Assembly: GCF_001457595.1 (NCBI RefSeq)
Contig: NZ_LN831039.1
Span: forward strand, 2,910,001 to 2,942,000
DNA from: Mycolicibacterium smegmatis
GTDB taxonomy: Bacteria; Actinomycetota; Actinomycetes; Mycobacteriales; Mycobacteriaceae
DNA length: 32,000 nt
Direction of reading: 5' to 3'
Below, one piece after another: positions 2 through 22,214 of the stretch. The first letter of the stretch is position 1. Each line of letters opens with the position of its first letter. The position numbers and the translations under genes are program-made. A model generated the notes under the pieces. That model worked only from the letters and a program-made list of their open reading frames with translations. It did no database searches and was not told the origin of the DNA.

Positions 2-250
2 GTCGAGGACAACGGTCTGCACGGCGGCATCGGGTCGTCGGTGTCGGCCGCGCTGCGGCACGCCGAGATCGACGTGCCGTGCCGTGACGTCGGTGTACCG
101 CAACAGTTCCAGGACCACGCGTCACGCGGTGAGGTGCTCGCCGAGGTCGGCCTGACCGATCGTCACATCGCCCGGCAGATCACCGGGTGGGTGGCCGCGA
201 TCGGCACCCGCTCGGCCGCCGAGGACGAAGTCGGGCAGACGCTCGACTAG
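2..250 (+). CDS. dxs: 1-deoxy-D-xylulose-5-phosphate synthase, C-terminal fragment (gene begins upstream of window)
   Basis: The frame is open from nt 2 and reads [51 protein letters not shown]..., a typical Dxs C-terminal tail. Stop at 248-250. The neighbourhood (rnd, hemE) matches the mycobacterial dxs1 locus. Confidence 0.85.
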
Positions 251-17720: not shown

Positions 17721-17898
17721 TCGGTCACAAAGCGACGTTGTGGCCCCACAATCACGTGGTGCCTACCGCGAGGCACCGGGCTTCGGCAGCATCGGTGAGG
17801 TGAGCATCGACATCAGCCTCGACCCCGACACCGCTTTCGACACCGCACCACGCCCGTTCCACCTCGCGTGGTGTGCCCAACCACCGCGCCGCGCTTCG

Positions 17899-19908: not shown

Positions 19909-19927
19909 TCACAATCCCGGCTTGTGA
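19909..19927. promoter_or_regulatory. LTTR-type dyad TCACAA-N7-TTGTGA (fits T-N11-A)
   Basis: Perfect 6-bp inverted repeat with a 7-bp spacer in the LysR/DAHP-synthase divergent region. It is centred about 66 bp upstream of the proposed TSS at 19984 and about 48 bp upstream of the LysR start. Confidence 0.4.
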
Positions 19928-19971
19928 ACGTGGGTCTGCGGGGGCGATTTCAGGTCTTTGCGATCGTCGTG

Positions 19972-19977
19972 TAACCT
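19972..19977 (+). promoter_or_regulatory. candidate -10 hexamer TAACCT (TANNNT)
   Basis: The hexamer ends 6 nt before GTG 19984, which is the geometry expected for a mycobacterial leaderless transcript. No experimental support is available here. Confidence 0.35.
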
Positions 19978-19983
19978 GGCCGC

Positions 19984-20025
19984 GTGACTATCGGTGTGTG
20001 CGCCTCGTATTGGCGCTTTATCTAG
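19984..20025 (+). CDS. putative leaderless 13-codon leader peptide V/M-T-I-G-V-C-A-S-Y-W-R-F-I
   Basis: GTG ACT ATC GGT GTG TGC GCC TCG TAT TGG CGC TTT ATC TAG. The Tyr, Trp and Phe codons (20008-20019) overlap the 5' arm of the following hairpin. Purely predictive. Confidence 0.3.
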   Translation: MTIGVCASYWRFI

Positions 20026-20050
20026 GCTCCGGGCGGAGCCGATAAAGCGC
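20013..20050 (+). promoter_or_regulatory. long leader hairpin: GCGCTTTATC-TA-GGCTCC-GGGC-GGAGCC-GATAAAGCGC
   Basis: 16 of 16 arm positions pair (10-bp outer stem plus 6-bp inner stem). GGCTCCGG (20025-20032) can alternatively pair with CCGGAGCC (20071-20078). Confidence 0.5.
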
Positions 20051-20080
20051 AGCATCAAGCACGCATCCACCCGGAGCCCA

Positions 20081-20114
20081 AGGCAGCTGACCATCGGTCG
20101 CTGCCTTTCGTCGT
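20081..20114 (+). terminator. terminator/attenuator-like stem-loop about 50 nt upstream of the DAHP synthase start
   Basis: AGGCAGC-T-GACC-ATC-GGTC-GCTGCCT (11 bp with one bulge), followed by TTCGTCGT, a weak U-tract. Confidence 0.4.
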
Positions 20115-20164
20115 AAAAGGGCGCCGGACGCAGCAGGTGCCCACCATCCAAGGAAGGCACCTCA

Positions 20165-21217
20165 ATGAATCTGGCGCAGATCGCCAACCCGCCCGCGACG
20201 TCGGATCGGCGTATCCGCAGCTTCAGCGCGATCCCCAGCCCGCACGACGTGCTCACCGAATTCCCGCTGGGTGCCCGTCGCGCCGAGCGTGTGGCCGCCG
20301 ACCGCGACGAGGTCGCCGACATCCTCGCAGGCCGCGACAACCGGCTGCTGGTCGTGGTGGGCCCGTGCTCGGTGCACGACCCGGCCGCCGCGCTCGAATA
20401 CGCGAGCCGTCTGGTCAAGGTGGCCGAGGAGCTCAAGGACACCGTCAAGATCGTGATGCGGGTGTATTTCGAGAAGCCGCGCACCACGATCGGCTGGAAG
20501 GGCCTGATCAACGATCCGGGCATGGACGGCACGTTCGACGTCGCGCGCGGTCTGCGCATCGCACGTCAACTGCTGCTCGACATCATCGACATCGGTCTGC
20601 CGGTCGGGTGTGAGTTCCTGGAGCCCACCAGCCCGCAGTACATCGCCGACGCCGTCGCGTGGGGCGCGATCGGTGCCCGCACCACCGAGTCGCAGGTGCA
20701 CCGTCAGCTGGCCTCGGGCCTGTCGATGCCGGTGGGCTTCAAGAACGGCACCGACGGCAACGTCCAGGTCGCCGTGGACGGCGCGAAATCCGCCGCGGCC
20801 GAGCACGTGTTCTTCGGCATGGACGACATGGGCCGCGGCGCCGTGGTGAGCACCGCCGGCAACGAGGACTGCCACGTGATCCTGCGCGGCGGCACCCGGG
20901 GACCCAATTACGACGCCGAGTCGGTGCGGGCCGCCGCCGCCAAGCTGGCCAAGGCGGGACTGCCCGGTCGCGTCGTGATCGATTGCAGCCACGCCAATTC
21001 CGGCAAGGACCACATCCGCCAGGCCGTCGTCGCGACCGAGGTCGCCCAGATGGTGCGTGACGGTCAGCCGATCAGCGGTGTGATGCTGGAGAGCTTCCTC
21101 GTCGGTGGTGCGCAGAGCCCGGACGCAGAGACGCTGACCTACGGCCAGTCCGTCACCGACAAGTGCATGGATTGGGACGCAACCGATCTCGTGCTGCGCG
21201 AGCTCGCCCGGCGTTAG
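20165..21217 (+). CDS. 3-deoxy-7-phosphoheptulonate (DAHP) synthase, class I alpha (E. coli AroF/G/H type)
   Basis: 350 aa, collinear by eye with E. coli AroG: LLVVVGPCSVHD, VMRVYFEKPRTTIGWKGLINDP, WGAIGARTTESQVHRQLASGLSMPVGFKNGTDG, DCSHANS. SD AAGGAAGG lies 7 nt upstream of the ATG. Isozyme feedback specificity cannot be inferred. Confidence 0.9.
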   Translation: MNLAQIANPPATSDRRIRSFSAIPSPHDVLTEFPLGARRAERVAADRDEVADILAGRDNRLLVVVGPCSVHDPAAALEYASRLVKVAEELKDTVKIVMRVYFEKPRTTIGWKGLINDPGMDGTFDVARGLRIARQLLLDIIDIGLPVGCEFLEPTSPQYIADAVAWGAIGARTTESQVHRQLASGLSMPVGFKNGTDGNVQVAVDGAKSAAAEHVFFGMDDMGRGAVVSTAGNEDCHVILRGGTRGPNYDAESVRAAAAKLAKAGLPGRVVIDCSHANSGKDHIRQAVVATEVAQMVRDGQPISGVMLESFLVGGAQSPDAETLTYGQSVTDKCMDWDATDLVLRELARR

Positions 21218-22026: not shown

Positions 22027-22214
22027 CAGCGCTCCCTTCGTTCCGTGTTGCTGCGGGGAGCCTCCAGTATTGCCACGAGTTGTCCGGGTGGGCCGCGTGA
22101 GACAGGCCTGAAGGCGGGATTCTCACCAAAGGCTCACAGCTTCACCAGAACTCACCACAAGTCTTGTTCGTGGCGGTGCGGATCTCATGGTCTCTGCCGG
22201 CGGGGATCACTTCC

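Follow-up and report, generated by a model that had tools for sequence, protein, structure and literature searches.

The 5' leader of MSMEG_2799, which encodes a class I (AroF/G/H-type) 3-deoxy-D-arabinoheptulosonate 7-phosphate (DAHP) synthase in Mycolicibacterium smegmatis, probably functions as a ribosome-stalling attenuator that ties the gene to the supply of charged aromatic tRNAs. This conclusion draws on homology and on comparative evidence. The leader occupies an intergenic region (positions 19909-20164 of the window, by which we mean the whole 32,000-nucleotide stretch of chromosomal DNA that was analyzed) between a LysR-family gene on the minus strand and the DAHP synthase gene on the plus strand. 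It carries a leaderless short open reading frame (ORF) with clustered Tyr, Trp and Phe codons, as well as RNA segments that can form mutually exclusive helices. The same layout is found upstream of the same enzyme in roughly 40 actinobacterial genomes and more than 100 metagenome contigs. What was known previously is, essentially, that the short ORF had been listed and that aroR-type attenuation operates in Corynebacterium glutamicum; added here are a proposed attenuator function for the M. smegmatis ORF and an architectural twist. The synthesis of Phe, Tyr and Trp starts with DAHP synthase, and work on mycobacteria has so far treated control of this pathway mainly as feedback on the enzyme.

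In brief, the mechanism that we propose is as follows. Transcription would begin at the G of the GTG at 19984, and a ribosome would at once engage the leaderless 13-codon ORF. When Tyr-, Trp- and Phe-tRNAs are plentiful, the ribosome would cross the codons UAU UGG CGC UUU and the segment termed box B, terminate and leave. Hairpin 1 would then lock box B, and box C would be free to pair later with box E around a terminator-like hairpin (D:D'), resulting in poor expression. When aromatic tRNAs are scarce, the ribosome would be parked on the Tyr or Trp codon, or possibly the Phe codon, covering the 5' arm of hairpin 1, and the exposed box B would pair with box C over 9 to 12 base pairs. The B:C helix is predicted to be the conserved "on" structure. 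Three points here are inferences: that the ribosome does stall and the stall is sensed, that expression goes up through B:C, and how this would come about.

The leader open reading frame and its relatives

The M. smegmatis leader ORF is already on the published record. Table S1 of Canestrari et al. 2020 (bioRxiv 10.1101/834739) lists a leaderless small ORF (sORF), 'VTIGVCASYWRFI-', at coordinate 2863607 of the plus strand, with MSMEG_2799 as the downstream gene and with no M. tuberculosis orthologue. The catalogue contains 304 M. smegmatis leaderless sORFs obtained from transcription start site (TSS) mapping and ribosome profiling, and its authors use the word "putative." By this list, the leader ORF is transcribed and translated, and coordinate and peptide together place the transcript start at the sORF start codon. 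An earlier note on this DNA, made from the sequence alone, had proposed a TSS at the GTG at 19984, and that start was thus on record for the same peptide. Canestrari et al. nowhere mention aromatic amino acids and attach no function to this sORF, and the supplements of Shell 2015 and Martini 2019, in text form, contain neither the peptide nor its coordinate.

The codons of the leader ORF are GTG ACT ATC GGT GTG TGC GCC TCG TAT TGG CGC TTT ATC TAG. In the genes of the window, UAU makes up 11.6% of Tyr codons and UUU makes up 3.1% of Phe codons, and these rare synonymous codons are nevertheless used by the leader in every actinobacterial lineage.

For comparison, we collected loci that encode relatives of the DAHP synthase, including 41 actinobacterial loci from at least eight genera. 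The leader is kept upstream of the orthologous gene in all actinobacterial loci with enough upstream sequence, with the exception of one (L025). It is present in Mycolicibacterium, Williamsia, Gordonia, Catellatospora and Promicromonospora, as well as in separately retrieved sequences of Tsukamurella and M. avium, and the peptide core is Y-W-R-F in all of these. The shared layout consists of a -10 box, a short ORF with an aromatic cluster (Y-W-R-F, WYWRF, YFWF or FYF), box B (GGCUCCGGG), box C (CCCGGAGCC), which is complementary to it, and a strongly covarying hairpin that adjoins box C and often has a U-rich tail. A TANNNT hexamer is situated 5 to 8 nucleotides before the leader GTG or ATG in almost all of the 41 loci; the leaders of L011 and L029 were recovered only by a fallback search that does not require this hexamer. 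In all lineages, including the proteobacterial ones discussed below, box B starts 5 nucleotides after the Phe codon. Ribosome footprints place the end of a stalled ribosome's entry channel at about this distance past the codon.

A pattern scan of metagenome sequences found 120 further contigs, many of which encode VSRWYWRF, with two Trp codons. Nearly all of the contigs with enough downstream sequence have a class I DAHP synthase 150 to 340 nucleotides downstream. The combination of a -10 box, a start codon and an in-frame aromatic cluster is present in more than 80 metagenome contigs. The aromatic cluster is retained where the surrounding RNA differs, in the forms YFWF, YSWF, FYF and WYWRF. 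For example, a variant in Nocardia and Amycolatopsis has a leaderless ORF (VQRVYFWFSKPARGG... or VQRYSWFTKPAPGG...) with a YFWF or YSWF cluster. These Nocardia and Amycolatopsis leaders escape the YWRF-type covariance model and are linked to the others by architecture only.

Two side observations were made in this collection. In the ten loci with the Nocardia/Amycolatopsis variant, the partner of box B is the 5' arm of a hairpin that lacks a U-tract. Also, in a contig labeled Betaproteobacteria bacterium PRO4 (L012), the leader is of the Mycolicibacterium type and the DAHP synthase shares 82% identity with that of the window; the contig is probably actinobacterial and mis-binned.

Peptide residues that do not belong to the aromatic cluster vary freely, and insertions and deletions between the start codon and the cluster add up to multiples of three. 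M. smegmatis has a TAG (20023-20025) where all relatives carry GAG or AAG after the Ile codon, and it lacks the TAA that is usual in the family at 20054-20058 (CATCAA versus CACTAA). In the relatives, the ORF runs on through hairpin 1 (for example, YWRFIEAPGGADKAQH) and stops about 13 nucleotides before box C; the M. smegmatis peptide is shortened from about 24 to 13 residues. Both changes occur at unpaired positions and all helices are intact. Because the helices are left untouched, we argue that the peptide's C-terminal part serves no purpose by itself, and that ribosome occupancy of the aromatic codons and box B is what matters.

These observations bear on the alternative that the leader is a purely RNA sensor (a riboswitch or protein-binding leader), or that it encodes a functional small protein, the aromatic codons being incidental. 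Such a role would be in keeping with the very high nucleotide conservation, which includes third codon positions, and the peptide would indeed be made. We consider it exceedingly improbable, however, because the start beside the -10 box and the in-frame aromatic cluster are kept despite different RNA in Nocardia, Amycolatopsis, Corynebacterium and proteobacteria, and because the residues outside the cluster are free to change and M. smegmatis is truncated at codon 13 with its RNA helices unchanged. A search with the Rfam covariance models, which the earlier note had recommended, yielded no family in this region of the window (the top score was 19.5 bits, compared with a cut-off of 37.6) and zero matches in eight related loci.

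Covarying helices and a modeled ribosome switch

The features of the region are listed in Table 1. Read directly, all of the sequence elements that the earlier note had described are present where it placed them. The stem followed by UUUCGUCGU, which it had put about 50 nucleotides before the DAHP synthase start, was found as 12 base pairs with one bulge, 51 nucleotides before the ATG at 20165, the tail extending to 20114.

Table 1 Features of the MSMEG_2799 leader and its surroundings (RNA position 1 is window position 19984)
Feature	Window positions	RNA positions	Strand	Basis or remark
LysR-family gene	start called at about 19888 or 19870		-	5' neighbor of region 19909-20164
Dyad TCACAA-N7-TTGTGA, probable operator of divergent LysR gene	19909-19927			center 66 bp upstream of leader start
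-10 hexamer TAACCT (TANNNT)	19972-19977		+	6 nt before TSS and GTG 19984
Leaderless short ORF VTIGVCASYWRFI*, 13 codons plus TAG	19984-20025		+	sequence; Canestrari 2020 Table S1; homologous ORFs in all relatives
Sensor codons UAU UGG CGC UUU (Tyr Trp Arg Phe)	20008-20019		+	invariant in alignments A1-A3
Hairpin 1 (sequesters box B)	20013-20050		+	minimum free energy (MFE) fold; two tiers, 10 bp and 6 bp
Helix A:A'	20013-20022 with 20041-20050	30-39 with 58-67	+	covariation, MFE fold
Helix B:B'	20025-20030 with 20035-20040	42-47 with 52-57	+	MFE fold
Box B GGCUCCGGGCGG	20025-20036		+	begins 5 nt past Phe codon; partner is B' or box C
Box C CCACCCGGAGCC	20067-20078		+	partner is B (starved state) or E
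Helix B:C		42-53 with 84-95	+	alternative pairing, covariation
Hairpin D:D' (terminator-like), 12 bp with one bulge	20080-20107	97-124	+	MFE fold; starts 1-2 nt past box C
Box E GGGCGCCGG	20119-20127		+	partner is C (enclosing D:D') or F
Helix C:E		88-96 with 136-144	+	covariation, shuffles
Helix E:F		136-142 with 153-159	+	alternative to F:G
Hairpin F:G (AGGUGCC/GGCACCU)	20135-20162	152-158 with 173-179	+	holds Shine-Dalgarno partly in stem
Shine-Dalgarno AAGGAAGG	20150-20157	167-174	+	AUG at RNA 182
Class I (AroF/G/H-type) DAHP synthase MSMEG_2799, regulated gene	20165-21217		+	TIGR00034 (aroFGH), 500 bits

The 187-nucleotide leader is predicted to fold with an energy of -88.5 kcal/mol, compared with -64.6 +/- 4.3 kcal/mol for shuffled sequences (z = -5.5), and none of 200 shuffles was as good. 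The tiers of hairpin 1 are formed by GCGCUUUAUC/GAUAAAGCGC (10 base pairs) and GGCUCC/GGAGCC (6 base pairs), and the codons for Trp, Arg, Phe and Ile are situated on its 5' arm. The alternative pairing involves CCGGAGCC (20071-20078), which is complementary to GGCTCCGG (20025-20032).

Pairs were counted in a MAFFT alignment of 33 leaders and in a second set of 91 distinct model-aligned sequences; the latter alignment was fitted to a covariance model and hence leans toward structure, slid controls being 34 to 53% paired. The B:C helix, whose mean duplex energy is -23.2 kcal/mol, is paired in 94.5% of cells with three compensatory pairs in the first alignment, and is 98.5% paired with compensatory changes at four of nine pairs in the second. 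The corresponding evidence for D:D' is compensatory change at nine of 12 pairs, and 97% pairing with all 10 of 10 pairs compensatory. In the 33-leader alignment, A:A' is 86% paired (five compensatory pairs), B:B' is 93% paired and C:E is 82% paired (two compensatory pairs). The C:E duplex beats shuffled sequences in most of 86 sequences (mean -18.3 versus -13.8 kcal/mol, median z -1.9), and box E covaries with the 3' end of box C, GCCC accompanying GGGC, and GCCAG accompanying CUGGC. The strength of hairpin 1 comes from A:A', which is a feature of the group comprising Mycolicibacterium, Gordonia, Williamsia and Tsukamurella. A covariance model built from 25 leaders, with Corynebacterium excluded, recovers the held-out leaders of M. 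avium (88 bits) and Tsukamurella (64 bits). One further candidate helix, P0 (19993-20001 with 20059-20067), was set aside as weakly supported, with 64% of cells paired.

We modeled the switch by masking the nucleotides that a ribosome would cover when its A site holds the Tyr or Trp codon, and averaged pairing probabilities over 19 leaders. With the ribosome in place, the mean probability of A:A' falls from 0.70 to 0, that of C:E falls from 0.57 to 0.02, and that of B:C rises from 0.22 to 0.97. In the 3' part of the leader, E:F goes from 0.07 to about 0.45 and F:G goes from 0.83 to about 0.44, and D:D' is at about 0.9 in either state. In the window leader, hairpin 1 has a pairing probability of 0.9 in the free RNA and 0 with the ribosome on the Tyr or Trp codon; the modeled stall raises B:C from 0 to 1.0, lowers C:E from 0.77 to 0 and leaves F:G at 1.0. 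In silico, therefore, the position of the ribosome chooses between mutually exclusive folds, hairpin 1 versus B:C and C:E versus B:C, and both sides of each choice covary.

The earlier note had joined a mini-ORF with aromatic codons to alternative RNA structures upstream of a DAHP synthase, and this association extends to many genera, in which the start, the codons and B:C are conserved with compensatory changes. Its reading of the region as an aromatic attenuator is likewise supported, given that the architecture, box B and box C are common to the studied C. glutamicum aroR-aroF attenuator, whose canonical terminator is the counterpart of D:D'.

Candidate read-outs and the LysR dyad

The read-out that we prefer is reduced termination at D:D' and its U-rich tail, by analogy with C. 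glutamicum, in which read-through goes up on Phe limitation. This preference follows from the C. glutamicum homologue, which ends in a canonical terminator and reportedly acts on transcription; the chances that termination is the main read-out in M. smegmatis seem to us to be about even. Since B:C abuts D:D' and does not overlap it, the effect might be exerted by crowding: if the 5' flank of the terminator were held in a rigid B:C helix beside the stalled ribosome, the base of the hairpin could not form inside RNA polymerase. A second, clade-specific layer is likely, in which the freed box E would pair with F and thereby open F:G, the hairpin that holds part of the ribosome-binding site. Taken jointly, these ideas would describe a widespread, undescribed RNA family that acts as a steric ribosome-tethering antiterminator. 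Through the abutting B:C helix, the stalled ribosome would be clamped to the foot of the terminator hairpin, which then could not be completed inside RNA polymerase, and a C/E toggle would give one sensor both transcriptional and translational outputs. It is unlikely that this joint description holds in full.

Several results weigh against attenuation by stalling, or against parts of the mechanism as we have drawn it. As a stand-alone helix, B:B' is no better than shuffled loops. The U-rich tail of D' occurs in about half of the family, part of which has no U-rich tail altogether, and a terminator scan does not call D:D' in M. smegmatis, where the tail UUUCGUCGU has four U in eight compared with the criterion of five in eight. 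Constrained folding with the ribosome on the Tyr, Trp, Phe or stop codon in nine lineages revealed no antiterminator overlapping D:D', and the stem always forms, with a probability of about 0.9; the earlier note had also seen no convincing antiterminator pairing. No antiterminator helix shares nucleotides with the terminator-like stem, as B:C ends 1 to 2 nucleotides before D, and the leader thus lacks a feature that defines classical attenuators. The crowding mechanism is our own proposal, has no citable precedent and must be considered doubtful. At equilibrium, the switch does not change accessibility of the ribosome-binding site, either in the M. smegmatis clade or family-wide, and in the window leader E:F never beats F:G, although E:F does win in many relatives. 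A stall at the Phe codon could partly cover box B, depending on the footprint assumed. The Trp codon UGG is replaced by CGG (giving YRRF) in two unrelated lineages, Mycobacterium sp. 141 (L005) and an actinobacterial metagenome-assembled genome (L029), with RNA pairing kept; these replacements indicate that Trp sensing is apparently dispensable and not universal, Tyr and Phe being always kept. Finally, when the covariance model is run with filters off, its top full-length match is exactly on the aroR leader in both Corynebacterium loci, but with marginal scores of 14.3 bits (E = 0.029) and 11.8 bits (E = 0.13).

Additional observations concern the surroundings of D:D'. Good U-tracts are present in Williamsia, Tsukamurella and Corynebacterium. 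The gap between box C and the terminator-like stem is 0 to 3 nucleotides in the genomes inspected (Corynebacterium and the YWRF group); in metagenome variants in which B:C is extended on that side, box C ends up to seven model columns before the stem. The tail past D' (20108-20116 in the window and its equivalents in relatives) is conserved as sequence (UUUCGUCAUU, UUCGUCGUUU, CUUGUCAUUU), beyond mere U-richness. Antiterminator pairings proposed by eye, namely the A' tail with D' and the U tail, and B:C extended into D, were rejected as weak and unconserved.

The same sensor might instead be read out at translation. The "off" state would then consist of C:E together with F:G, which holds part of the Shine-Dalgarno sequence, and in the "on" state B:C would free box E so that E:F opens the site; D:D' would be a mere spacer hairpin that brings C and E together. 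Many relatives have no U-rich tail, C:E is widespread and covarying, the modeled stall shifts helix probabilities in the expected direction, and one paper describes aroR as translational control. When the 3' domain is folded in isolation it shifts likewise: in most Mycolicibacterium and Williamsia leaders, E:F is best when E is free and F:G is best when E is masked. Moreover, E:F forms first cotranscriptionally in all Mycolicibacterium and Williamsia leaders examined, and in the window the isolated E:F (-14.5 kcal/mol) would form before G is transcribed. Against this, all equilibrium states of the window leader have F:G at 1.0 and E:F at 0, the unpaired probability of the Shine-Dalgarno sequence does not change in the M. 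smegmatis clade and is 0.45 versus 0.44 family-wide with equal numbers going up and down, and most of this sequence is in the F:G loop anyway. The F/G arrangement is also unconserved in Gordonia, Tsukamurella and Corynebacterium. We therefore hold a translational read-out to be possible but not probable as the principal one; it is compatible with our preferred explanation, and the two may coexist.

A metagenome subclade, comprising eleven contigs that we noted and others, is of separate interest in this regard. Its leader ORF has no stop before box C and reads 30 to more than 400 further codons, and the U-rich tail is missing. In L123 and L146, the end of the ORF is 2 nucleotides away from the start of the DAHP synthase gene that follows it; in L138, L172 and L191, the ORF is apparently in frame with that start. 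The lack of both stop and tail suggests translational coupling or interference in this subclade, rather than termination.

Direct pairing of the aromatic codons with the Shine-Dalgarno and start region, which RNAalifold proposed for alignment A1, was also considered and rejected (-10.6 kcal/mol versus -9.5 kcal/mol for shuffles, z = -0.5); the duplex between codons and initiation region is at chance level throughout the clade. In six metagenome contigs, the aromatic codons (UGGUAUUGGCGCUUU) pair over about 15 base pairs with the start-codon region of the DAHP synthase gene, and the unpaired probability of the AUG goes from about 0 to between 0.4 and 0.9 with a stalled ribosome. Such pairing is significant compared with shuffles in only about seven of 83 metagenome variants.

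Termination could also depend on Rho, with the C-rich segment GCACGCAUCCACCCGGAGCCC as a loading site that is available when single-stranded and hidden by B:C. The segment at 20059-20079 is C-rich, untranslated RNA just past the end of the leader ORF of the relatives, it would be masked by B:C, and the U-tract is poor; published work reports that premature termination in M. tuberculosis is shaped by Rho and by upstream ORFs that are translated. Nevertheless, the exposed stretch is only about 20 nucleotides long and is partly paired in the "off" fold too (P0, C:E), and the C. glutamicum homologue has a canonical intrinsic terminator, which together make a role for Rho highly improbable.

The preferred reading, in which the leader itself controls MSMEG_2799, has also to be set against control by the neighboring regulator. 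The earlier note had included the dyad upstream of the leader as a site for a LysR-type transcriptional regulator (LTTR). The dyad is real and perfect. Its core, CACAA-N7-TTGTG, occurs perfectly twice in the window, at 17726-17742 and 19910-19926, and three times if one mismatch is allowed, compared with 0.45 occurrences expected. The copy at 17726-17742 falls between two transporter genes, after the stop (17720) of one that belongs to the major facilitator superfamily (MFS) and before the start of one that is SLAC1/TehA-like. Two LysR-bearing relatives also have a pair of dyads about 2.16 kb apart (98-114 and 2256-2272 in L001; 75-91 and 2253-2269 in L002), and the pair is in no other fetched locus besides these and the M. 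smegmatis strains (L081-L085). In relatives without the LysR and SLAC1-like genes (L003, L005, L023 and others), the MFS gene directly precedes an intact leader and there is no dyad. Compared with L005, L022 and L023, the DNA between the MFS gene and the leader contains an additional LysR-transporter module of two genes and about 2.2 kb, with a dyad on either side. Because the pair is found only with the module and is absent where the module is absent, the dyads look like operators of an inserted module; one would be the target site, and the other would belong to the promoter of the regulator itself. The dyad is not conserved together with the promoter of the regulated gene, and to judge from these comparisons it is not part of the conserved attenuator, but travels with the LysR-transporter pair. 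In M. smegmatis, its position at -66 might nonetheless bring it into contact with the DAHP synthase promoter. The third, one-mismatch copy (CACAAGTCTTGTTCGTG, 22156-22172) lies downstream of the DAHP synthase locus.

If the divergent LysR regulator were the main control of the DAHP synthase promoter through this dyad, the leader would be minor. The dyad is a perfect 6+6 whose distance from the mapped start is typical of LTTR activation sites, its recurrence in the window (two perfect copies and one near-copy) is not random, and it is conserved in both LysR-bearing relatives. However, the second dyad is directly upstream of the SLAC1/TehA-like gene 2.2 kb away, so that the pair brackets the module, and relatives lacking the module keep an intact leader without any dyad. 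The symmetric positions are C-N11-G, not the T-N11-A of the LTTR motif, and the dyad is 21 to 39 bp upstream of the called LysR start, which fits autoregulation. We thus regard main control by LysR as improbable.

In the reading that we prefer, then, a model organism carries an easily mutated leader in which each of three amino acids would be sensed by one codon. The set of about 40 genomes and more than 80 metagenome variants that was compared amounts to a testable structural model and a possible seed for an Rfam family, and it includes natural variants without the Trp codon, without the U-tract, with an early stop or with read-through.

Relation to known attenuators

Leader-peptide attenuation of the classical kind is known to operate in mycobacteria, as illustrated by M. 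tuberculosis ilvB1 (PMC13236596). The M. smegmatis leader resembles classical attenuators (E. coli trp, pheA and his, and M. tuberculosis ilvB1) in that codons for the end product are located in a short ORF, the ribosome would select between hairpins, and the structural gene is preceded by a hairpin that has a U-rich tail. It differs from them in that its ORF is leaderless and not led by a Shine-Dalgarno sequence, and in that three amino acids would be sensed through a single codon each. Moreover, its "on" helix abuts the terminator-like stem with no overlap, and the 3' partner of box C, box E, is downstream of the terminator-like hairpin.

The polycysteine sORF attenuators (Canestrari 2020, bioRxiv 10.1101/834739) are from the same organism and the same catalogue, and share a leaderless sORF with regulatory codons, where a stall has been proposed to refold the leader. 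Regulatory codons of the polycysteine type pair directly with the region around the Shine-Dalgarno sequence, whereas in the MSMEG_2799 leader they pair with a local partner, A'.

Our search also uncovered aromatic leaders in beta- and alphaproteobacteria, including Bordetella, Achromobacter, Pusillimonas and Bradyrhizobium. They occur in 17 loci, about 100 to 260 nucleotides upstream of the match to DAHP synthase, which is a class I enzyme 55 to 60% identical. These leaders have ATG ORFs led by a Shine-Dalgarno sequence, with five to eight aromatic codons of the FYFYF type (for example, MKFASPAFYFYFFGFLKPLAEEG and MKFASPAFYFYFFGFLKPLAEEGTRSI). The segment that begins 5 nucleotides after the last aromatic codon copies the 3' arm of a canonical terminator, which makes it a textbook antiterminator. 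Because of this copy, the polarity of B:C is fixed as the "on" structure. As in M. smegmatis, a GC-rich segment 5 nucleotides past the aromatic cluster pairs downstream, and the peptide tail (KPLAEEG) can be compared with EAPGGA and KPARGG. Unlike in M. smegmatis, C is itself the 5' arm of the terminator, and the ORF is not leaderless but has its Shine-Dalgarno sequence. Three of these proteobacterial loci were searched against Rfam with no match, and we found no description of such leaders in the literature searched.

The aroR-aroF attenuator of C. glutamicum was reportedly characterized by Neshat et al. (2014, J Biotechnol 190:55). Its leader peptide gene, aroR, had been predicted upstream of aroF and encodes Phe-Tyr-Phe (Mentz et al. 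2013, PMC4046766). According to passages in later papers that cite the work (PMC11802643, PMC7356990, PMC11525245), attenuation of aroF transcription by aroR, and its relief on Phe limitation, was shown in 2014. We compared the aroF upstream regions of one C. glutamicum-group strain and of C. efficiens, whose AroF proteins are homologous to the enzyme of the window. In these leaders, a leaderless-looking ATG is situated 8 nucleotides after TAAGGT, the peptide is MFAARFYFMSGSGAF... (MFAARFYF...), box B (GGCUCCGGGG) begins 5 nucleotides after the last Phe codon, and the stop codon is 12 to 15 nucleotides before box C, CCGGAG(U/C)C. A hairpin, GAGCAGC...GCUGC, follows directly after box C and is itself followed by UUUUUUGUUU.

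The two systems are therefore alike in many respects. Both are upstream of orthologous class I DAHP synthase genes, with a short ORF right after a -10-like box and with UUU and UAU as aromatic codons. In C. glutamicum aroR, as in M. smegmatis, box B (GGCUCCGG) is located 5 nucleotides past the last aromatic codon and has a complementary box C and an adjoining hairpin (GCAGC...GCUGC) with a U tail, and the aroR stop 12 to 15 nucleotides before box C matches that of the M. smegmatis relatives. The differences are that the aroR peptide has FYF and no Trp, compared with YWRF in M. smegmatis; that Corynebacterium is without hairpin 1 (A:A'), box E and the F:G hairpin, all of which M. smegmatis has; that the terminator tail is a canonical U-tract (UUUUUUGUUU) in Corynebacterium and UUUCGUCGU in M. 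smegmatis; and that the M. smegmatis ORF stops before box B, unlike aroR. From these sequence comparisons, we conclude that the M. smegmatis element is a diverged aroR homologue, or at least a leader with the same architecture.

In M. smegmatis as in C. glutamicum, where attenuation has been demonstrated, the presumed "on" helix is beside the terminator-like hairpin and not over it, which is an odd layout. The MSMEG_2799 locus is suited to asking how such an abutting arrangement could prevent termination, and whether outputs at transcription and at translation are combined in actinobacterial attenuators. Some practical interest attaches to these questions as well, as the aroR element has already been removed deliberately in production strains.

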